From NCBI RefSeq assembly GCF_043381705.1, contig NC_092205.1:57580995-57615479 (forward strand): a stretch of DNA of 34,485 nucleotides, written 5' to 3'. This stretch comes from Parasteatoda tepidariorum (taxonomy: Eukaryota). A program made the translations under genes and the position numbers. The notes below the pieces were generated by a model. That model was given only the letters and a program-made list of their open reading frames with translations. It did no database searches and was not told the DNA's origin. Below, piece by piece: positions 1-34,485 of the stretch (the first letter of the stretch is position 1; every line of letters begins with the position of its first letter).

Positions 1-580
1 CTTAATATATTTTTATATGTTTGCCTTAAAAGTTCATTGTTTAAACTTTCAGTATGTAAAATGTAAGTTTTATATTGCACTTCAGTGTTTTCATCATGGA
101 AAAAAAATGGGTGAGAATTTCTCACCCTTTCTCAAAAACAGGGTGAGATTTCAAAAAGTTAAGTGAGATTTCTAAAAACTAAAAAAACACAAAAACTCTT
201 GAAAAAAAAAATCATTTCTTTACTTTTAATACATTTTTAGCGTCTTCTATTTTTTAAAGCATTGAATATTTTTGGTGCATCATCATAGAAGATTTTGCCT
301 TTACAAGGCATTTGTCCATCTTACATTACATTACATTAGCACATAAAAAATTTGAACGTCTTACATGAAGAAACCTTACCTACGGTAAACACGTGGTTGC
401 AGAGAAATGTGTTTTGAAAGGGGTTCCGTGGTTGTGTTCTGTTGTTCGAAAAGGTTCTGAACAATACTGGTAATTAGGGAAGCTAGATAACGGGGCAGAT
501 GAGAAAAATAATGAAAGATACAGGAAGAAAAGTGAAACGGATTTTATTCTAAAGGGCGTAATTCGAAGTTTTTTCTAAAA

Positions 581-694
581 TGCGAGAAATTCGCGAATTT
601 TGAAATTGATTTATAGAATGCGCGAATTTCTCGCGGTAATCATTTTTTAATGCGAGAAAAGAAAAAAATATGCGAGATTCTCGCGTTCTCGCGC
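581..694. repeat. Cluster of short palindromic motifs of the GCGAGA(A)ATTC(T)CGCG type. 582..595 and 622..635 are reverse complements of each other, and GCGAGATTCTCGC at 672..684 is a perfect palindrome.
   Basis: Direct reading from the sequence. A related palindrome GGGTGAGAATTTCTCACCC lies at 109..127, with GTGAGATTTC repeats at 141..173. Confidence 0.7.
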
Positions 695-811
695 TGTAGA
701 AATCTGACAATTGTATGCCCATCATGCCGAATGCAGTTTTCTGATTGTTAACTTTGTCTAACTATCTTTGTTGAGCTAAGAAAAATTCATACCCTTGCTG
801 ACATTAGGGTG

Positions 812-964
812 GAATTCAGCTACATTTTCGCAATTTCGATGGGTCACTTAAGCCAGTCAGAAGACTGTACTTCTGTAAACATATCACATTTTGCTATATG
901 TAAAAATACAAGATTTGATGGGCCGAATTTGTCCATCGTAATTTGCGAAAATGTAGCTGAATTC
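812..964. mobile_element. 153-bp MITE-like foldback element with perfect 22-bp terminal inverted repeats GAATTCAGCTACATTTTCGCAA / TTGCGAAAATGTAGCTGAATTC and imperfect subterminal continuation (CAATTTCGATGG / CCATCGTAATTTG).
   Basis: 812..833 is the exact reverse complement of 943..964. Confidence 0.65.
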
Positions 965-3900
965 TGCCCTAGAAAGCCATGGATTTACGAAATATAAATT
1001 TTTTTTGTGTTCGTACGATAGTTAACATAAAACTGACAGATTTTACACTGTACTGATATTTCGTTTAAGAAATGTTCATTAAAGAAGAAAACCTAAAAAA
1101 AACTTTTTATTCAATTTGGGACCCCCTCTGATGAGGGGCCCGGGACAACTGTCCCGTATGCCTCTGCCTTTGTCAGGCTCTACCTACGCAGACTGATCCA
1201 AGTGGTCACCCACCAGCACACTGACCGCAGCCAGTGATGCCTGACTTCGGTGATCTGCTGGGAACCGTGTCTTAACGATCAGTCCATGCTCGTACCTCGA
1301 AGCGTGAACAGTATTTTATTTGAAATATTTGAAGTTTCCATTATTTACAGATGCCAAAATTTTACATTTGCGGAACACTACTTCTCTACCAAGCTCTCTA
1401 GCGTGGAGCTAGCAGATTCGAATCCTCCCGTATTATTTTTTGCATCTTTGTAATGTGATTCTTTAGTTTGTGCTACCTGTTTTTCATTTTGATATTGGAT
1501 TATAAGCCGTCTTTTTAATAAGAACACAATTTTAAGAATGCATACGTAACAATAAATAAAAGGAACAACGCTACAATGAATTTTTGCGCACACGCTAATG
1601 CGTTGGAAAGTTGTCACGCAAAGCTCAAAAATATTTAACCAATCAGCTTTCTGATTACGTCAGTCAATATCACGTATCGAAAGGAGGCGTGTCGTATTTG
1701 AAGATATCAAAATATTGCGTGTCTCGTGTTGCTGTTGGGGTTGCAACCGGCATATGAACGAATGCAATTTAATTCATTTTCATTAAGGTATATAATTCAG
1801 TAACTACTATTACTACACACTTAATTCGTAAAGCGTATTAGACTGCATGAGTTACGCTGCTGTTACTAAAGGTACATTATTTTTTTCTAATTTAAACAGC
1901 TTGTTTTGTTGAATGTTTGGCTTTGACATTTTGTGTTAAATAGAATATTTACTTTAAAATGTAGATTAAAGAAGTTCGAATTGAAAATAGAAGTAGTGGT
2001 AGTTCAATTCTATGTTAAGATTGGTACTATTAGGCTCAGAAGAGCACTTGAATAAGAGGAGCTTTTTGAAAATGAACTATTTTCAATTTCACAAAACTAC
2101 TTAACTTCTGATCTCATTATTTACTCACTTGGTTTGCAGTGGGTGTCGACATTGGGGACTATCAATATATATCACTCTCAAATTTTAGAAACCTCTAAAA
2201 AGCCCCCCTTTCAATATTTCAGACAAATAGGAACATTTTAAGCTATTTAGTAAGCAAAAGATTAAAAAACTTATAACTTGTTCAACATTAAGAAAAAAAT
2301 TCTTTTAGTGGAGAAATACTCATACTTTTCAATATTTTCTTTCCAAGCATTTTCGTTCTTATTTTTTACTTTAAGTAACCTCCGTATTTGTAGAGAAGTA
2401 CACTGCTGATTTTTTCCCTTGTTTCTCCCCATGCATAAATTCCTAATCAATGTGGCTGAATTAGGAATTTATGGACACATTTAGGAACACTTTATTCAAG
2501 AAGACTAACAATTCCTAAGGAAAGAGATTGAAGGTCAAGGGAAAGGTGTAACAGGTTTAACACCTTACCCTCGGAAAGAAACAATCTCTGTTTTCCCATG
2601 AAAACGAGGGTGCCACCTTCATTTTCCCTCCAGTGATATAATGACCTTCGATTCCGCTCCTAATCTTCTTTCTTCAGTTTAATATGAGTAAAGTGTATGA
2701 TTGCATGAATAGTTTTAACTTTTGTCCTCTTATTCCTAAATTGAAATAAATTTTCTAATTTTAGTCTTCATGAGTTCAATCAGATAGTAAATAAATGTTT
2801 TAAAATATGATTATTGATTTATTTTTTATTTATGGTATAATAGTACATGTTATGCAGTGATGAGATTCAAATTCTAATACACTTAAATAACTTTTTAACA
2901 TTTTTAAAAGAAATTGAATAACAGGCGAGAAATATTAGGAACTAAAATTAATAACTTTTTATGAATTTTAAGGTTTAAATACATTTCAAATTTAAATTTT
3001 CTAAAATATTTATTTTTTACTTTCAAGTATTCGTTCGAAATGACTGAATCTCATCACTACACGTCAATCGTAATAATCGTCAGTGAAGTCTTGTTTCTAA
3101 AGTAGCAAGATAAATCACTAACTTGAATAGCATTTATTAAAGTTCATTTAAATTTAATAGAATGAAACATTCAGCATAAGTGTCTCATCTTAAAATAAAA
3201 TCTGTTTAATTTATAACAACAAAAATACTAAAATCATATTTAATGTTTCAGCTAATTTTATGTGAAATTCACCAAACATTTTCCTGAAATGAAAAGTAAG
3301 TTTTAAATATAATGCACACCAGATTAAATATAATGCACACCAGTATGCCAGATTTAATTTAGAGAAAATATAATTACTTTTAACTAAATAATTATTTTTT
3401 TCATATAATTTATGAACTTTTTTTATATATAAATATTAATAAACTTTTATTTTGAATAGTTGATCATTTTTACTTCAAAAATATTTTTTGGAAAAATAAT
3501 GTGTTCGGAAACAAATTTTGACTGATTTAATATTTCAAGTTTTGAATTTTTTATTTTTGTTAATTAATTTTTTAAATTGCATTTACTTAACTTTCTCAAA
3601 GCAAGATGTCTGACTTAGAGAAAGTCTGTTTTCGTTACCCATGTATATAATATATGTATCAATGTAATTTATTTGCAAACATTTTATTTTTTTCATATAA
3701 ATGAATATAATATAAAAGAGTTAATTTTTAAAAAAATATAATTACTATTTACTAAATAATTAATCAATTAAACTAACTAAATAATTACTCAATCTAAACT
3801 TATTAAATAATTAATCTGAGTGATGGAGTTTGCAGAAAAAAAGGTTTTTTCCCATGTATATAAAATTGTTCATGCAGGACTTTTGTTTCTTAAAATCAGA

Positions 3901-5058
3901 TTCTTTGAAGAATGTGCCAAATATTTATGTTTCAAAATCATCGATAATAACAGAAAAGTAGAAATAATATTTACCAAATAATTACATCTCGTATCAACTA
4001 TTTAACGAATAATAACTAAATCACTAATTTTTATAAGTTCCATAGTTTGCTCATTAGCGTTCATCGCCTAGAAAACTGCTTGTGCAATTCTTTTAATACT
4101 GCTTTGTTCGCTTATTTCATTTTTCCAGTCTAGAGTGACCAATGAAACTGAAGAAGAAAAAAAATCAAGATATTATAGTTATTGTAGTTGATTGAAATTT
4201 GTCATTCATTGCATGCTAGTTTGAAGCTTGTAAATTAAAAATCTTTGAATTTGGCAGCTAATGTTCATTAATGTATGTTAATTATGTTTTAGTATTTTTA
4301 TAATTTATTATACGAACGATAAGGGAAAAAATTTTTTGTTAGAATATGGGAAAAAAATAGTTAAAAATTCAAGAATTTATTTCAACATGAATGATTGATA
4401 AGAAAAAAATAAGTGTTAAACATACATTTCTTGCAGTAATGAGAGAGCACCATAGAATTTTCCTTAGATGATTTTTATAGCTATAATGTAAATTTTAAAT
4501 AAAGATAATTGATTTTTTTAAAATAAATAATTTTGAAAATGATATTTCTTAACTTTTATTTAAAGCATGCCATTGTGAATAAGGAATTTTTTTCATTGCT
4601 TAATGAATTGTTTATTTTGTAAGCAAATTCCAAAATATCTTATTAAAATGCACTACATGTTTTTTATTTTGTGTTAAGATTTATTTTGGTATTTAATATA
4701 TCTTGCTGATTAAGGAAAGTAATTATTAACATTTGTTGTATGATTTTGACTAAAATCTACTTTTCATTAATTTTCTTTTATTAAAATTTTAATTGCATAA
4801 TAAAAAAATTTCAGTTAAAACTCAGATTTACTTTTAAGAGTTAAAAAAAAATAATTCATCATTTTGCAGATGGAATAAATATTTTTTTTTTTAAAATTTA
4901 TATTGGCTGGATGTAGTATGCTCCGGGGATTATTATATCTTTCTAAAAAATATTTACAGTAATTTTTATTACTGTTTATGTTCTCATTATACCAGCAAGA
5001 CAATCTTTATCTAGCCTTGAATGACATGCTTTTTCATTGATTTTCAATACATAACAAA

Positions 5059-5064
5059 TTTATT
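5059..5064 (-). promoter_or_regulatory. Candidate AATAAA polyadenylation signal for the PIH1-domain gene. It reads TTTATT on the plus strand, about 70 nt downstream of the stop codon.
   Basis: It is the first AATAAA hexamer on the minus strand after the stop codon at 5135..5137. No transcript evidence is available. Confidence 0.3.
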
Positions 5065-5134
5065 AAATATTCATCTTGAACATTTATGTAAAAAAAAAGT
5101 AGATATAATCTAGAATAAGCATAAAATATGTCTT

Positions 5135-7378
5135 TTAAGGTGAAGAAGCAGGTGTTGGAGTATTTACAGCTGTAGAGGCAGGCTGTGGGTATGGGGATTG
5201 TTGAAAATTAGTTTGAAGATTATCACTTTCTGTAGTAGGTTGAGAATGTGGAGTTTCAGGATTAGTTATTTGTTGTTCTACAGGTGTTGGAGGAAGATTC
5301 TGAGAATCTTCTCTTTGTGGTGTAGTGATATGGAGAATTGCAGCTTGAAGGTTGGCTACTTGAAAATTGGCTGCTTCAAGAAGAGCCTTTTGAAGATCAG
5401 AAATTTCATTTAGAGCTGCTTGAAGATCAGCTATTTGCATAGAGTTGTTTTGAACTGAATCTTTTTCTTGGTTTGTATTTTGAAGAGGAGGTTTCTGGGG
5501 TTCAGTTTCAATATCTTGTTTTTGCAATGCACATTGTGAGGGGTCAGCCTGCTGTATTGAGTTAGCTTTGAGGTTTTCAACTTGGGAAAGAGTAGCTTGC
5601 AGCCGAGCCAACAGGGAAGGAGCTTCTTGTAAATGAACTTGTCGAGAAAGTACAGTTTGAAGCTGTGCCAAATGAGATGATGCCATCTGAAGTTGATTCA
5701 TTTGAGCTGGGGATGCTTGGTGGTGAGCTATTTGTGGAGGAATATTTTGACGATGCTCCATTCGAGGAGGAGTCGATTGGTGATGGTTCATTTGGGTGGA
5801 ATCCATTTGAGGATACCCCATGTGATGGTGACTGGCTTGCTGTCGATTGACTGGAGGGGCATTGCCTTGATGTCGTTCCATCATCTGCACATTTGGTGGA
5901 TAACGATTCATGTAATGAGGATTAACACGATTATGGGGCATCTGTGAGGGCAATGGTTGAAGATGATTGGGTCGAGAAGTCATTTGAGGGTGATTCATTT
6001 GTGATGGCATATGTTGTGAATTCTGAGAAGGAGGCATCTGGTAATGAACTGCATGATGACGAGGCATCTGAGCTATATTTTCTTGGTGTTGGCTCATATG
6101 TGATGTATTAGACTGAAAATGACTTCTCTGTGACGTTGGTGGGAAATGAGGAGCCATTGCATGTCCTTGATTCATGTGGGGAGCATTTGTTTGATGATTA
6201 TCTATATTAGGATAGTTAGGTTTATAATGAGGTGGATATTGTTGACGAGGTGACATTTGAGGTGGAGGGGCTGTTTGATGGTGAGAAATTTGTGCTGCAA
6301 CAATCTGCGAATTAGTAGTTTCAGTAGCATTTTGCTCATGATGAGGTCTTAATTGTTGCATAGGTGTCTGACTTCGTGGAGCTTCATGAGGTGAAATAAT
6401 TCTTGGTGGATCTGGTCTTCTACGATATTGTCCAAGTGTAAAAATTGATGAAGGATTGGCACGAGGTAAATATATTGTTATTTTACCTTCATGATAATGT
6501 ATCCTACAATCCATAACTGATATTGCATTAGGAAGATAAAAATAAAATTGGTGATTTGTTTTATTTTCTCTAATAAATAGCTTCTTTCGAGAAGCAAATA
6601 CTTTAACATCTCTAGGATCTAAAAAGGAAAAATATGGCAGAACTACTTGCAACATGAAACCTTTAAATTCTCCTTCAGCAGGAAATTGTCGGATCTCGTA
6701 TTCAATTGAAGGATTTTTAATGTCAAATTCTGGCTTGCGTTCTGTATGAAATTTCCTTATTGTTGTATTTATGGTGAAAGGATCAGAGAAGTATGGCTCT
6801 TTATTATTTCCTTCTTCTGATTTGGACAGAACACCTAATCGTTTGTATACATTTCTCAAAGATTCTGGCATAGTCCCATGATAAAACTTCTTTAACAATT
6901 CAAATTCTTTTTCTAATTTAATGTTATACCTATCATAAATAGCTTTACATGCTGTTTGATATAGGTAATTAAGTCTTTGATCACGGTGACTGTGAGAAAG
7001 TATAGAGTCCATAAATTCTGTTTGAATTATTGTATCATAGCATATGCAAATTTTACCATTTTCATCTCTATCTACACGTTCATCATCTAAATATAAATTA
7101 AATCTTAGAATCGATTCATCTCCACGACTAGTATGAATTTTTGAATTATAAACATTGCAATTTGGTAATTCGAGAGAGTGACAAATATTAATGTAAGCTG
7201 TTTTGTTTTGTTGCGTTTTTCCTTGGAAGCAAAATCCTGGAACAGTAACTAGTGATGGACATTGACTGTGTATTATATTTTTATTTTCTGGGCAAGTAAA
7301 GTCATAGGATTGATCGATTAAGCTATAATCGTAAAGCACTTCATAAAATTTTCCATCTGAACTTCTATTTTCTGCCAT
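5135..7378 (-). CDS. PIH1-domain protein (Kintoun/PIH1D family). It has an N-terminal PIH1 domain and a CS-like beta-sandwich, followed by a ~400-aa Q/H/P/M-rich low-complexity tail that ends in a short coiled-coil-like segment. It appears to be a single coding exon.
   Basis: The ORF track gives a 747-aa uninterrupted ORF. The hallmark N-terminal PIH1 motif is present as VTVPGFCFQGKTQQNKTAYINICHS, where human PIH1D1 has QPQPGFCIKTNSSEGKVFINICHS. A further block, ICICYDTIIQTEFMDS...RYNIKLEKEF, matches PIH1D1's CTAYDVAVNSDFY...KYNLQLNPEW. A CS-like region follows (EYEIRQFPAEGEFKGFMLQVVLP...KITIYLPR). The family is identified by recall, not by a search. Confidence 0.8.
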   Translation of the reverse strand: MAENRSSDGKFYEVLYDYSLIDQSYDFTCPENKNIIHSQCPSLVTVPGFCFQGKTQQNKTAYINICHSLELPNCNVYNSKIHTSRGDESILRFNLYLDDERVDRDENGKICICYDTIIQTEFMDSILSHSHRDQRLNYLYQTACKAIYDRYNIKLEKEFELLKKFYHGTMPESLRNVYKRLGVLSKSEEGNNKEPYFSDPFTINTTIRKFHTERKPEFDIKNPSIEYEIRQFPAEGEFKGFMLQVVLPYFSFLDPRDVKVFASRKKLFIRENKTNHQFYFYLPNAISVMDCRIHYHEGKITIYLPRANPSSIFTLGQYRRRPDPPRIISPHEAPRSQTPMQQLRPHHEQNATETTNSQIVAAQISHHQTAPPPQMSPRQQYPPHYKPNYPNIDNHQTNAPHMNQGHAMAPHFPPTSQRSHFQSNTSHMSQHQENIAQMPRHHAVHYQMPPSQNSQHMPSQMNHPQMTSRPNHLQPLPSQMPHNRVNPHYMNRYPPNVQMMERHQGNAPPVNRQQASHHHMGYPQMDSTQMNHHQSTPPRMEHRQNIPPQIAHHQASPAQMNQLQMASSHLAQLQTVLSRQVHLQEAPSLLARLQATLSQVENLKANSIQQADPSQCALQKQDIETEPQKPPLQNTNQEKDSVQNNSMQIADLQAALNEISDLQKALLEAANFQVANLQAAILHITTPQREDSQNLPPTPVEQQITNPETPHSQPTTESDNLQTNFQQSPYPQPASTAVNTPTPASSP

Positions 7379-9920
7379 ACTGGCAAAAAAATTCCTCCTG
7401 ACTTAACAAGATTTCTAGGCATACATATTTTTCTTTATAATTTTTAATGTAAGCTTGTTACCTTTTTAAAAATTATCATTCAACATTCAAACAGCTTAGA
7501 AAATAATTATATGTAACTTTTCTTAGCATAAAATACAAATAATGATCAATCAGTATTAGCTCTCTGATTACTTAGCAATAATTTTAAAAAAATGATTAAT
7601 TATAGTGTTATTAGTTTCTAGTTATATTTATTAGAAAAATAAAGCATCCGTAAATAGAGAATATTATGTGATCTCCTTATTTGCTAAATAATGAATAATA
7701 GAACCAAAACTAAACAATAGCAGACGTATGAGATACATCTCAAAAGGAAAATAAGTATCTGGCAATATAAATGAAGTGATGGTATGAGGCTTTTTACTAG
7801 CACGCAGTCATTTATAAAGTTTTTCGTTATAAAAATATTTATTTTTACATTTAATCGTGAAAGTGCATTACATTTTTGAAAAACTATGTCGCAAAAATTA
7901 TTAATTTAAATAGAATCGGGAAGGCTATCGCAGGAAAAAAATAAATTATAACTCTCTAATATTTTTATAACTCGTAACCGTTTCGTTTTTTGTTTCCAAC
8001 AAAAACAAAAGTAAACAAACCGGGTAGAATGTAATAGAGATGTTAGGTCTAGTAACAGATCAGTTAATATCGGCATTACCAACAAAAATATGAATTCCAT
8101 TTTTTTTTTTTAATTAAAGGGGGAAATTTTGCACAGGTTGTCAAAAAGACTGGAAAAAATACGAATTTTTTCTTGACCTTACGGGATTCTAAAACAACAC
8201 ATCAAAATTGTAACTAATTGTATAACACTGAAACTAACTCAAAATTTCAAGGGAATAAAAAACAGGTCATTTTTATCTTCAGTCATTAGAGTAAGTGGAC
8301 ATTCAATTTGGCATAAGATAACTCCAATCCTAATGACAATATTTTAAAATCAGAATGTTCTTTAATCTCTAGAAATGTGTAAAGTTTCAAAATATTTAAT
8401 TAGTAGAGTTATGACAGTGAGAAGCATACTCTGAGAAAATTTTCGGAAACAAAATTTAAGGGATATTATCATAACCACGGCAAGTTGGCGAAGAGTCGGC
8501 GGCAATTATAAAGATAACTTCATGAAACAAAGGAAAATATGATAAATCCTATATCCGGACGTTTGTTTCCGGGAAGGGTACACTTTCCGATCATTTTTAA
8601 TGTGAGAGTAAAGAGTTAAGTCAGACGAAAAATAAAAGTTATAATTGAAAATTTTTATTTTCTCTTTAAATCATTGACAAAAAGTAAACTGAAACATTTG
8701 TGCCAATGTGTTTATTCTCTATTAAGTTAATCCCTTAATAATTTTTAAATTCAGTTGGAGCAAAATGTGAAATCTTCTCTGTTTAATGAACAGGTGCAAA
8801 TCATGTTTTGTTTTGAAATTTTGTCTTCAGGTATTATCTTATATCTTGCTTGTTCCTTTGGACAGTTAAGTTTTCTTTGCTAATTAGTTCCTGTGGAGTT
8901 GGGTGTAATTGTAACTGTGATGTAATTGTTTTCCTTTCTCGTATTCTTAATTATTCCCTTGAATTAATTTTTAATGGAGGAAAATAATTTATATTTTTCC
9001 TTATAAATTTGAAAAAGAATTAAAATAAAAAATAGTTGTAATGTTTTCTTTTTTCCAAATTTATTTTTGTTTAAATACATTTTTTAATGATTATTCCTAT
9101 TTAAATTAAAATTTTTTAATTTTTATTAATTAATATTGTTATTTATTTATTTTTGCTGTTGGGGGAAATTTTATGTATTTTTTTGGCCTAAAATTGTTTT
9201 TATTTGGGGTCCATTATTTAAATTTTTTTTTCCTGAATACAAAATGAATGATTATATTTTAATTTGATGTTATTTTAATTAATTTTACTGTAATTATTGA
9301 ATAAAAAATAATTATGTATTTTGCATATTTGGTAGTGTTTGATCTTAGTTTTGGCTTTATTAGGGACCATATATAGCCTAGACAAATTATTTTTTTTTCG
9401 AATACAAGAAAAATAATCATACTTTTCTTTAATCTTCATTAATAATATTTTTTACAGTTATTTAATCAAAAATATTTACAATTATTGTGAATTTGGTTGA
9501 ATTCGTTCTTTGTTTTGACATACCTTTTTTGATTGGGGATCTATTACCTAGAAAATATTTATGAATGCAAGTTAAATTAAATTTATTATACTTTTTGAAA
9601 GAGAAACTTTTTTTTTAATTGGCTGATTTTGTAATTCTTTGATGTGACTTTATTTTGTTTAGTGACTTGTAAAGTATTTCCTGCATATAGATATATACTA
9701 ACAATCATACTTTTATATGACCTCTCTGAAGTTAATATAACAAAAACATTTTAGTCTTTCAATTTAATTTTACTTTTTGCTTTATCAAGTCTAGTCAATT
9801 TACTGTCTTAATGTTGCTCTTAGAAATTAAGGTTGTAACTTTTCACTTTAATTTAAAAGTAATGTTTTTAAAACAGTTGTTATAATTCTATTTCTGATGT
9901 TATCTATTTCCATAGGAATA

Positions 9921-10078
9921 ATGCCGAGTGATAAAAGTGGTGTCCCTGCAAGTCAGGGCAATGATAAGAGCATTTATCGCATACCTCCGTACATGTATAT
10001 GCATGTATTGGATCAGACTGCAAATGTCACTAGAGTTGAAGCAGGTCCAAAGACATATGTGCGGCAAGAGAACGAACG
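9921..10078 (+). CDS. MVP: Major vault protein, coding exon 1 ([53 protein letters not shown]). The exon ends in phase 2 with a CG|gtaaag donor.
   Basis: Aligns to the human MVP N-terminus ([37 protein letters not shown]). The ATG at 9921 has an A at -3 and sits just after a possible acceptor, tttccatag at 9915. An in-frame upstream ATG at 9897 would add MLSISIGI and is considered less likely. Confidence 0.85.

Positions 10079-17203: not shown

Positions 17204-17252
<49 letters not shown>
17204..17252. repeat. Mononucleotide (T)49 run, which reads as poly(A) on the minus strand.
   Basis: Direct count from the sequence. Confidence 0.95.
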
Positions 17253-20577: not shown

Positions 20578-20868
20578 TAACTTAATTATACTAAAATTTA
20601 TTTTATCATTAAATGTTTGATTAGCCTCTCTTAACTGGAATGTCAGTAGAATCAACAGGTTTCTTTTGAATATCTCTGTATAAAGAAATGAAGTTATTTG
20701 GAAAAAAAGTACAAATTTTAATTATACTAAAAAAATTTTTTTGATCATTAAATGTTTGATTAACCTCTCTTAACTGGAATGTCAGTAGAATCAACAGGTT
20801 TCTTTTGAATATCTCTGTATAAGGAAATGAAGTTATTAGGAAAAAAAGCCTCATTTTATTGAACCTCA
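20578..20868. repeat. Tandem duplication, two copies of a ~139-bp unit, immediately downstream of MVP exon 9.
   Basis: aatgtttgatta(g/a)cctctcttaactggaatgtcagtagaatcaacaggtttcttttgaatatctctgtataa(a/g)gaaatgaagttatt... occurs at 20612 and again at 20751. Confidence 0.85.
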
Positions 20869-25871: not shown

Positions 25872-26427
25872 AAAAAAATTACTCGTAATTTGTGAATATG
25901 AAATAAACGATAAGTCATTCTTTCAACCAGGGTCCTGCTTTTATGAATTTGTGCAAATAGGGTCCGGTTATAGCAACAAAAAAAATTCAAGGAGTTTTTA
26001 AATTGTAAAGAGATAGGAGATTATGCTCAACACTGTAAAATTATAATTAAAAAAATTAAATTTTAAAAAATAAACAACAATTGCTGCTTCTAAATTAGAG
26101 ATGCAACATACAAATATTTGGTATTTAGCCTATACTGCTGAACGCAGAATATTAATTTCGGACGAATAATGGAAGAATCGTCTGCCGAAGACAAAACTTA
26201 ATTCGTTTACATCCATCTTTCTTGTTTTCTGCCCTGGAAAGGGTTTATTCGATTAACAAAATAATAATGAAGATAAACAAATTTGTGAAGGGTCCGATTA
26301 AAAGAAAAATTATTTTGTGAAGGGTCCGTTTTTAAGTTAAAATATTTTGTGAAGGGTCCGTTTTTATGAAAAGATATTTTGTGAAGGGTCCGTTAACGGA
26401 CCCAAATTTCTTCTAAACAGACCCCTG
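25872..26427 (+). mobile_element. Related copy A of the same CAGGGG-TIR element family. It is 5'-truncated with no 5' TIR. Before its 3' terminus it carries an expanded 3' subterminal array of four ~32-bp TTTTGTGAAGGGTCCG(A/T)TTTT repeats, followed by the palindrome GGGTCCGTTAACGGACCC.
   Basis: Core homology to copy B (attctttcaaccagggtcc...gggtttattcgattaaca) and an identical 3' terminus ...ggacccaaatttcttctaaacagacccctg. Confidence 0.55.
26281..26400 (+). repeat. Tandem subterminal repeat array, 4 copies of a ~32-bp unit (a/t)TTTGTGAAGGGTCCG(a/t)TT(T)..., inside copy A.
   Basis: Unit starts at about 26281, 26313, 26345 and 26377. Confidence 0.7.
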
Positions 26428-28561: not shown

Positions 28562-29337
28562 CAGGGCTCGAAAAACCACCCGTCCTCGGCGGTCAAAAAT
28601 TCCCCACGGACAAAAAATTTCTCTAATCCAGCGTCCGCGCGGACGGCCGTTTTCCCGTAAATGTTCGTGATACATTTTAAATTTTTTTTATCTTACAAGA
28701 GTCTACCGCCTCACTTCTAAAATGACCCTCTGATCTCGAAATACAGCAACACACTGTGCATGGTGGAATTGATGTTTTCTCTGTCAGGGAGTACTGCAGC
28801 GGTTGAAAGGGGCTTTTCAGCAATGAACTTACAAAAAAACACATTACTTACTGGTCTTAAACAAGAAGCGTTAAACGCATTTATGAACATCTACCTAAAT
28901 GGAAAACCTCTTTCAGATTTCTGTGCAGAAACCTCTGTAAAATATTGGCTTGATTGTGGAACTGGCAAACGTCATATTTGATTCATTTAAAAAACGCAGT
29001 ACCATCGGATAAATTGACATAATTGACAGATAACTTAACCTTTGTTATTTAAATTATTTCATCAAAGAAATAAATTATTTCATAATAGAAATACTAGGTT
29101 TTACTAATAGTACCCTAGTATTTCTTTTATTACTGTATAATGTAATCCTAGTATTTGTAATCGTAATAACTACTAACTAATTCATTGTGCAATTTATATA
29201 AATGTTTGTAATAAATAAGAGAAAATTATATTTTTATTTATTTAGAAGCGACGGGTTAATTTCAAAGGAGGATGGGTAAATTGTTGGACAAGCGGTCCTC
29301 GGGGACGGGTAAAATTTCTGAGTTTTTTCGAGCCCTG
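28562..29337 (+). mobile_element. Nonautonomous, internally deleted hAT-superfamily DNA transposon of 776 bp. It has a perfect 8-bp target-site duplication GCTTGTAA (28554..28561 and 29338..29345) and roughly 16-bp terminal inverted repeats CAGGGCTCGAAAAAAC.
   Basis: The 5' end reads cttgcttgtaa|CAGGGCTCGAAAAACCACCCGTCCTCGGCGGTC and the 3' end reads GCGGTCCTCGGGGACGGGT...TTTTTTCGAGCCCTG|gcttgtaata. The ends are reverse complements of each other. The CAGGG terminus and 8-bp TSD are hAT hallmarks. An internal ORF encodes a hATC dimerisation-domain remnant. Confidence 0.8.
28760..28981 (+). pseudogene. hAT transposase C-terminal dimerisation-domain (hATC) remnant, 73 codons. It is all that is left of the transposase after an internal deletion.
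   Basis: The ORF track protein ...LSGSTAAVERGFSAMNLQKNTLLTGLKQEALNAFMNI... carries the conserved hATC signature S-x-x-x-x-ER-x-FS followed by a hydrophobic R/K..L....L..L pattern. The BED and RNase-H-like domains are absent. Confidence 0.7.
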
Positions 29338-33828: not shown

Positions 33829-34485
33829 CAGTAGACGCCGCTTAATGTGATCACATCGGGACGAACATGATTTGATAACAATAACCGATTGATTACAATA
33901 AACAAAAAAAAAAGTTAAGCTAAAAAATGATTTTTTTTACATACGTATTAAAATAAAAAATATTTTAAATTAGGAGTTGTTGCTGTAAGACTCTGAAGTA
34001 TTTAATAGAAATTAATGTACACTAAAGAAAAAGTATTAGTATACTCACATATTTATTGATAAACTGCAGAAAACAATACAAAATACAAAAGGTTAATTAT
34101 TAACTGAAAAAGAAATCATCAATTGTCGATTGTTTAGCATTCTTTCGAAGCAATTCATTTACGAATCGCTCATAATCATAATGTTTATGAAAGTGTTCCG
34201 CGTCGGCTTTGTTTTGCACACCTAGCCGTAAGACTCGAAGTGCCTCCCTCATCTGAGCAGGCGTCGGAATTTTGTCCTCGATAGCACTTTCAGATTCATC
34301 ATCGGCATCAGAATCTTGTGACGAAGACACATCTGACACATATGGTTTCTGATGGTGATCTTTGACACATATGGCTTCGCAAATGTCCTCATCAGTTAAC
34401 GAAGTAGAAGTCTCAACCTTCTCGTCGATCTCCATCCATGCTTCAAAATCCTCAGCATTCATATCGGGCGGGGGATTGAAAACGT
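33829..34485 (-). mobile_element. pogo/Tigger-like (Tc1/mariner superfamily) DNA transposon, 3' portion. The element continues beyond the window end. Its terminus CAGTAGACGCCGC abuts TA within a (TA)n tract (TA at 33827..33828).
   Basis: A minus-strand ORF encodes the acidic C-terminal tail typical of pogo-like transposases. About 270 bp of non-coding sequence lies between the stop codon (34100..34102) and the CAGT... terminus next to TA, which fits a pogo TA target site and CAGT-type TIR. Confidence 0.55.
34100..34485 (-). CDS. pogo/Tigger-like DDE transposase, C-terminal 120+ aa. It is partial, and the ORF remains open to the window edge.
   Basis: The ORF track gives MNAEDFEAWMEIDEKVETSTSLTDEDICEAICVKDHH...SDADDESESAIEDK.... 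This acidic tail with the ...EDF..W...TSLTDE(E/D)I..A(I/V) motif is characteristic of the pogo family. The 23 nt upstream in the same frame (VFNPPPD) contain no stop. It is homologous to the decayed fragment at 16262..16400. Confidence 0.6.
   Translation of the reverse strand, partial: VFNPPPDMNAEDFEAWMEIDEKVETSTSLTDEDICEAICVKDHHQKPYVSDVSSSQDSDADDESESAIEDKIPTPAQMREALRVLRLGVQNKADAEHFHKHYDYERFVNELLRKNAKQSTIDDFFFS

Follow-up and report, generated by a model that had tools for sequence, protein, structure and literature searches.

The window analysed here is a 34,485-nucleotide stretch of the genome of the house spider Parasteatoda tepidariorum (NCBI RefSeq assembly GCF_043381705.1, contig NC_092205.1, positions 57,580,995 to 57,615,479 of the forward strand). 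It carries a gene for a 747-residue protein with a PIH1 and a CS domain, which is the subject of this study, and the gene for the major vault protein (MVP). The coding sequence of the first lies on the minus strand as one ATG-to-TAA open reading frame (ORF) of 747 codons that is uninterrupted, as an earlier note made from the letters of this DNA had described it and as the list of ORFs bears out. The GC content of the ORF is 0.35-0.40, compared to 0.21-0.33 in the very AT-rich surroundings. The predicted protein matches an NCBI/UniRef entry of P. tepidariorum (P0001) at every residue. The ORF is a real gene with a single coding exon. Two features define it at this level:

5135-7378, minus strand: complete coding sequence of the PIH1D1-like gene, 747 codons plus TAA (ORF list; translation 100% identical to P0001)
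5059-5064, minus strand: AATAAA, candidate polyadenylation signal 71 nucleotides (nt) past the stop codon, predicted from the sequence

The public name of P0001 is "PAX-interacting protein 1" (PTIP). This identity was considered and rejected: there is no BRCT domain, and Pfam gives PF08190, the PIH1 N-terminal domain, as the sole family in the whole protein at E<=1. The one feature that PTIP has in common with the house-spider protein is a glutamine-rich low-complexity stretch; unlike PTIP, the latter has neither BRCT domains nor any detected family besides PIH1. The public name is an annotation artefact.

PIH-N and CS domains of the PIH1D1 type

The N-terminal part of the protein consists of two domains separated by a linker:

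6854-7258, minus strand: PIH-N domain, amino acids (aa) 41-175 (Pfam, phmmer against PDB, AlphaFold, Foldseek)
6716-6853, minus strand: inter-domain linker, aa 176-221, predicted to be disordered (predicted local distance difference test, pLDDT, 29-57)
6449-6715, minus strand: CS-like beta-sandwich domain, aa 222-310 (AlphaFold, Foldseek, profile match to 6gxz_D)

The PIH1 signature PGFC...INICHS pointed out in the earlier note is present, and the Pfam check for PIH1 was positive, PF08190 matching aa 47-170 with E=5e-12 and 46 bits (cutoff 24). When PDB sequences were searched with phmmer, the N-domains of human and mouse PIH1D1 led the matches (4psf, 4e-8; 4ckt, 1.5e-7); matches of the C-terminal tail to pentapeptide-repeat proteins in PDB (E 0.02-0.5) were discarded as low-complexity noise. 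Alignments were built from the relatives found in the searches described below, of 8 sequences first and of 35 sequences next. The profile of 8 sequences, the house-spider protein included, retrieved PIH1D1 N-domains from PDB at 1e-37 to 4e-45 and the CS domain of human PIH1D1, 6gxz_D, at E=2.6e-7; its other PDB matches were yeast Pih1 and one Hsp20. The Pfam model PIH1_CS (PF18201) was found in 5 of the 8 members of this alignment.

The fold of aa 1-330 was predicted by AlphaFold with the 35-sequence alignment. Two confident domains were obtained, aa 41-175 (pLDDT 89-98) and aa 222-310 (pLDDT 79-95). Foldseek searches of PDB placed PIH1D1 N-domain structures on top for the first domain, with template modelling (TM) scores of 0.76-0.89. 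For the second, the best CS match was the RPAP3-bound CS domain of human PIH1D1 (6gxz_D; TM 0.80, root-mean-square deviation 1.8 Å), with Hsp20 and Sgt1 CS domains ranking next. The CS-like domain proposed in the earlier note was therefore borne out by the confident model and its Foldseek match, the PIH1_CS check being negative on the single sequence. Combined, these results show that the reading of a PIH1 domain followed by a CS domain is correct.

To place the protein among the PIH families, aa 1-330 were used in a HMMER search that was exhaustive over 1.84 billion representative proteins, each standing for one cluster at 50% identity. It yielded 48 relatives at E<=1e-3, and source names were read for 27 of these. 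Every named animal relative is a PIH1D1, namely those of Argiope bruennichi, Caerostris darwini, Brachionus, Cloeon, Schistocerca, Hetaerina, Cichlidogyrus and a macaque; the PIH1D1 relatives range from sponge to primate, and the relatives are 276-353 aa long. The sole "kintoun" among the named relatives is a stramenopile protein with E about 1e-4, and no animal DNAAF2, PIH1D2 or PIH1D3 was present among the 27 named of the 48. In a neighbour-joining tree based on 276 well-aligned columns, the house-spider protein is sister to the Argiope and Caerostris proteins (XP_055929599, 333 aa, and GIY76881, 353 aa), to which it shows about 25-27% identity by BLASTP. Word-index protein searches recovered little: the whole protein returned the query alone, the N-terminal 325 aa returned nothing, and the 8-sequence profile returned one metagenomic protein. 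The protein belongs to the PIH1D1 subfamily and not to Kintoun/DNAAF2 because all the named animal relatives and the best matches among solved structures are PIH1D1. Judged from its sequence, it is a member of the PIH1D1 family and not Kintoun/DNAAF2, PIH1D2 or PIH1D3. The earlier note had likened the protein to Kintoun/DNAAF2 and PIH1D proteins together; the domains stand and the subfamily is PIH1D1, so the Kintoun/DNAAF2 part of this comparison is dropped.

PIH1D1 (yeast Pih1/Nop17) is the adaptor of the R2TP HSP90 co-chaperone. R2TP consists of RUVBL1, RUVBL2, RPAP3 and PIH1D1. The PIH domain of PIH1D1 binds clients phosphorylated by CK2 and its CS region binds RPAP3 and RUVBL1/2 (PMC6940843). 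The house-spider protein keeps the order of PIH-N domain, disordered linker and CS domain, and its best sequence and fold matches are the PIH1D1 structures 4ckt, 4psf and 6gxz. It departs from PIH1D1 in that it evolves much faster and is 747 aa long, against a usual length of about 290-350 aa, through a C-terminal extension of about 420 aa. In this last respect it looks like Kintoun/DNAAF2, in which PIH-N and CS domains are likewise followed by a long C-terminal region at a comparable overall length (PMC6940843). A spider orthologue of this dynein-arm assembly factor would account for the architecture and for the 747 residues, DNAAF2 being a 91 kDa protein with PIH1 and CS domains (PMC6940843). 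Against this, neither DNAAF2 nor PIH1D2 nor PIH1D3 of an animal appears among the named relatives, and the closest relatives are tail-less spider PIH1D1 proteins of 290-350 aa, so that the tail is secondary. DNAAF2 is not the closest sequence family, and the tail would be a late, lineage-specific addition on a PIH1D1 backbone; we consider a DNAAF2 orthologue extremely improbable.

Another relative has an unusual architecture of its own. The best non-self match (E=1.4e-23) is a 512-aa protein (P0002) encoded at 325-1863 of contig L007 (Logan ERR14857931) from an AT-rich genome. It consists of two tandem PIH-N domains followed by one CS domain in a single uninterrupted frame.

The C-terminal tail

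The CS domain is followed by 437 residues. The tail proper (aa 331-747, 417 aa) comprises three parts of about 225, 130 and 60 aa:

5711-6388, minus strand: Q/P/H/M/N-rich low-complexity region, aa 331-556, predicted to be disordered, with degenerate in-frame repeats (composition, pLDDT <50)
5324-5710, minus strand: L/Q/A-rich region, aa 557-685, with three predicted helices (single-sequence AlphaFold, helical block-mean pLDDT about 61-89)
5138-5323, minus strand: P/T/Q/S-rich C-terminal end, aa 686-747, predicted to be disordered (block-mean pLDDT about 39-49)

The extreme composition that the earlier note ascribed to the last 400 or so residues is evident over the 417 aa, with 15.8% Q, 12.7% P, 8.2% H and 5% M; in aa 331-575, H and M reach 12.7% and 8.2%. 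The degenerate repeats are also confirmed at the DNA level, all their spacings being multiples of 3 nt, and Tandem Repeats Finder detected 15- and 30-nt tandem repeats at 5344-5454, in the L/Q/A-rich part.

Such a region might be an intron, an untranslated region (UTR) or an open simple-sequence tract, the real protein ending near the CS domain. Several observations are compatible with this: the araneid orthologues stop 10-25 aa past the CS domain, a Pfam scan of the tail alone matched no family at E<=5, and other frames of the C/A-rich stretch hold ORFs of 84-114 aa. However, the 417 codons contain no stop, whereas the other two frames have 18 and 25, and each of 20,000 shuffles contained at least one. 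The frame has no stop from the CS domain up to codon 748. The tail has a strong three-base periodicity, with GC contents of 0.62, 0.40 and 0.24 at codon positions 1, 2 and 3 (GC1, GC2 and GC3), and its third positions are AT-rich as in the N-terminal half. The same holds in its parts, with 0.62/0.41/0.28 for aa 331-556 and a GC3 of 0.08 against a GC1 of 0.58 and a GC2 of 0.55 for aa 686-747. The repeats are in frame, and the gene model of NCBI encodes these same 747 aa. A non-coding tail is thus very unlikely: because of the stop-free frame, the outcome of the shuffles and third positions as AT-rich as those of the N-terminal half, the tail behaves as genuine coding sequence. It is a lineage-specific addition, since the araneid proteins end soon after the CS domain and tblastn with the tail gave no match in the Argiope and Caerostris loci.

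Single-sequence AlphaFold left most of the tail at pLDDT <50 and predicted helices at aa 557-579, 586-610 and 635-685, with about 130 helical residues. The earlier note had seen a leucine/glutamine heptad-like segment near the end; the helices are indeed predicted, and the heptad pattern is not significant, as the best hydrophobic fraction at a/d positions in a scan of the registers (0.53-0.67) was equalled by 194-709 of 2000 shuffles. A Q/N-rich prion-like domain was also considered. The maximum Q+N count is 24 per 80-aa window and proline makes up 12-14% of the region; the criterion of Michelitsch and Weissman from 2000 is reportedly at least 30 Q+N per 80 residues, and this candidate was rejected.

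Intron loss and the interval between the divergent genes

The neighbouring MVP gene has 13 introns, and the earlier note had raised the possibility that the uninterrupted gene is a retrogene, or has simply a large exon. The Argiope bruennichi gene spans exactly its coding length (1002 nt, 333 aa), as does that of Caerostris darwini (1062 nt, 353 aa), and two more relatives are uninterrupted on AT-rich contigs (L006 and L007) whose flanks look genomic. In contrast, PIH1D1 of the locust Schistocerca spans 68.6 kb with exons far apart, and that of the rotifer Brachionus spans 1350 nt for 313 aa. Because the coding sequences of Argiope and Caerostris are also uninterrupted while locust and rotifer PIH1D1 have introns, the single coding exon is an old trait of the spider-group lineage, and intron loss predates the split of theridiids and araneids.

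A processed retrogene was the leading idea of the earlier note. A recent one, specific to the species or genus and derived from an intron-containing parent, would fit an uninterrupted coding sequence beside a gene with 13 introns, the introns of insect and rotifer PIH1D1, and an A11 run located about 243 nt 3' of the stop codon. However, the same structure in two araneids and on the two related contigs makes the event old, and an identity of 27% to the closest named relative, Argiope (BLASTP), is ill-suited to a recent copy. The A11 run is unremarkable as a remnant of a poly(A) tract because 8 A runs of at least 10 occur on that strand of the window, and target-site duplications would no longer be expected after so long a time. 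A recent retrocopy is therefore highly unlikely. What stands of the retrogene proposal is the loss of coding introns; what falls is a recent origin in the house spider, the state being common to three spider species. Retroposition and in-place intron loss through cDNA are both compatible with the data on gene structure.

Synteny with related species had been suggested as a check of retrogene origin. The 14 MVP coding blocks and the tail were compared to the Argiope and Caerostris loci (10 kb either side) by tblastn, and the whole window by tblastx and blastn; the sole match in all these comparisons was the PIH/CS coding sequence. With distance and divergence as great as here, this lack of other common sequence fits a gene at a new location and one at the old location alike.

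On the 5' side, the gene faces MVP across an interval:

7379-7395, minus strand: acceptor-like motif aatttttttgccag|t, ending 1 nt 5' of the ATG, possible 3' end of a 5'-UTR intron (sequence)
7379-9920, no strand assigned: interval between the divergent start codons, where we infer both putative promoters and any non-coding first exons
9921-31965 (end approximate), plus strand: major vault protein gene, 14 coding blocks (six-frame reading; Pfam on the joined blocks)

The acceptor-like ttttttgccag|tATG noticed earlier is present on the minus strand. Under a looser definition, motifs as good as this one occur about 5.4 times per kb, which makes it no more than moderately unusual, and under a stricter definition (11 of 13 pyrimidines) the site fails. 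Similar YAG acceptors are found 1 nt (L006) and 5 nt (L007) upstream of the ATG in the related intronless loci; Argiope has a weaker acceptor-like site 4 nt upstream and Caerostris one 31 nt upstream. Because such sites are so frequent, the one in the house spider is suggestive only jointly with those of the related loci. The Argiope protein has three RefSeq accessions with one identical sequence, which we take as a sign of multiple transcripts with differences confined to non-coding parts. The upstream non-coding exon envisaged in the earlier note is accordingly plausible in view of the acceptors of the related loci and of the Argiope accessions, and it is not proven.

Two conserved non-coding blocks were observed upstream of the araneid genes, at 4575-4825 and 6302-6554 of the Argiope locus (L001) and at 4595-4844 and 6505-6725 of the Caerostris locus (L003). 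They show 75% and 67% nucleotide identity, sit 5.3 and 3.6 kb ahead of the ATG and could be UTR exons or regulatory elements; no counterparts of them were found in the window.

The assignment of the neighbour to MVP with 13 introns was correct: 14 coding blocks were read, and the joined blocks match the Pfam families Vault (3e-69), MVP_shoulder (1e-53) and Vault_2/3/4. The two genes had been described as convergent. They are divergent, in a head-to-head arrangement, as MVP is read on the plus strand from an ATG at 9921, and the gap between the two start codons is 2542 nt. An acceptor-like tttccatag|gaata lies just 5' of the MVP ATG, and MVP probably has a non-coding first exon in the common interval of 2.5 kb. 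A donor-like cag|gtatta was observed at about 8830. Midway between the start codons, at 8400-8599, the GC content reaches a peak of 0.365 with several CpGs, compared to about 0.2-0.3 around it; this segment may serve both genes as a bidirectional promoter.

Divergence, possible function and other features of the window

Among the proteins compared, that of the house spider is the most diverged PIH1D1. Its best score to any relative is 92 bits, compared to 213 bits for the Argiope-Caerostris pair (36% identity) and mostly about 150-220 bits for pairs of primate, sponge and insect PIH1D1. Measured to outgroups, its corrected distance averages 2.85, a value that is about 1.9 in the other proteins of the spider group and 1.4-1.5 in a typical PIH1D1, and its branch is about three times the length of those of its spider relatives.

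The divergence extends to the phosphopeptide site:

7199-7225, minus strand: codons 52-60, spanning the positions of the human phosphate-binding residues K57 and K64, where the house spider has Q52 and, beside K59, T60 (35-sequence alignment)

The columns of Q52 and T60 were matched to human K57 and K64 through the phmmer alignment. K is found in 33 of the 35 sequences in the first column, where Argiope also has Q, and in 34 of 35 in the second; the tail-less Argiope and Caerostris proteins both keep K at the K64 position. By our own reading of the same phmmer alignment, K164 aligns with human R168. Near-invariant positions are also replaced at P94 and F62. In human PIH1D1, the substitutions K57A, K64A and R168A abolish binding of the TEL2 phosphopeptide and leave R2TP assembly intact (PMC3989777). 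Compared to PIH1D1, the house-spider protein therefore has the K57/K64 pair replaced by Q and T and a basic residue, K164, kept at the R168 position.

Taken with the tail, these properties could be those of a divergent extra copy, a duplicate or retrocopy that is neofunctionalised or relaxed (for instance tissue-restricted), while a canonical PIH1D1 elsewhere does the housekeeping job in R2TP. A branch about three times that of the araneid proteins, scores of at most 92 bits, changes at near-invariant residues including both phosphate-binding lysines, P94 and F62, a novel low-complexity tail and the absence, beyond the coding region, of any sequence common to the araneid loci and this one would all fit such a copy. 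Spiders have undergone an ancient whole-genome duplication and retained duplicates are common. On the other side, the tree position beside the araneids is as expected of an orthologue, and spider PIH1D1 is fast in general, as seen from the 36% identity of Argiope and Caerostris. No second protein assignable to Parasteatoda was present among the representatives, which is a weak point as there is one representative per 50%-identity cluster. On balance we regard an extra copy, the main alternative, as possible and rather unlikely.

In our view the gene is probably the P. tepidariorum member of the PIH1D1 family, an R2TP client adaptor whose coding introns were lost anciently and whose tail was gained later. 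The coding introns would have been lost once, before the theridiid/araneid split, either via retroposition or via recombination with a cDNA, an intron in the 5' UTR being left in place. The tail would have arisen later, in the theridiid lineage, when the reading frame was extended past the old stop codon and units of about 10 aa were amplified in frame. The CS domain is predicted to still dock the protein onto RPAP3 and RUVBL1/2, while the reading of CK2-phosphorylated DpSDD/E clients is predicted to be weakened or altered. The disordered Q/P/H/M-rich and helical L/Q/A regions may provide extra multivalent contacts, or substitutes for the phosphopeptide site. Transcription would probably start from the 2.5-kb interval head-to-head with MVP, via a short non-coding first exon.

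Several points weigh against this explanation. Synteny with the araneid loci was not found, the 10 kb around them being free of MVP exons, and the case for orthology thus depends on a tree in which the branch is long. By itself, the protein falls below the Pfam PIH1_CS (PF18201) model. K59 lies beside T60 and K164 occupies the R168 position, so that phosphate binding may survive in a modified form. That the tail is translated, how the UTRs are built and where the promoter lies are predictions made from the DNA itself. Finally, the searches covered protein representatives, and a further PIH1D1 of canonical form may lie elsewhere in the genome of the house spider.

A stronger version, which we put forward tentatively as an unlikely one, is that theridiid PIH1D1 has been rewired. 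With the lysine pair lost, the His/Met/Gln/Pro-rich disordered region of about 420 residues together with its helical module would recruit clients or localise the chaperone differently, be it as the sole PIH1D1 or as a neofunctionalised copy. The contacts could for example be multivalent and of the condensate type, or pH-sensitive or metal-sensitive.

The probable PIH1D1 is an ordinary member of its gene family with some unusual features, already in public annotation under a wrong name, and its biological interest is modest. The main value of the analysis lies in corrections: the public name is wrong, the orientation to MVP is head-to-head, and the retrogene idea is pushed back to an ancient event common to the spiders compared. 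The protein is also a naturally occurring variant of PIH1D1: two lysines that the human protein needs to bind phosphopeptides are replaced, and a long disordered tail is added. If it is true that this gene is the sole PIH1D1 of the house spider, evolution is able to redesign the way in which R2TP recognises its clients, and the protein would offer a useful comparison for work on R2TP substrate selection.

A few further observations were made in the window. Rfam and tRNA scans of its whole length gave no hits, be it to a vault RNA, a snoRNA or any other. Downstream of the PIH1D1-like gene, at 1-5134, there is no convincing coding sequence; the two longest frames are without Pfam match, and the GC content is 0.21-0.23 at 3000-5000. 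At the other end, a 127-aa acidic open frame at 34103-34483 (minus strand) runs off the window; it has no Pfam match and may resemble the C-terminal part of pogo/Tigger-type transposase-derived proteins. The MVP introns contain a perfect T49 run (17204-17252), 1.9 copies of a 139-nt unit with 93% match (20582-20848) and 3.5 copies of a 32-nt unit (26282-26394), and related short frames recur over 26.2-28.0 kb. An 86-aa open frame in an MVP intron, at 28721-28978 (plus strand), weakly matches the dimerisation domain of hAT transposases (PF05699) below threshold, at E=0.018, and is probably a decayed hAT element.

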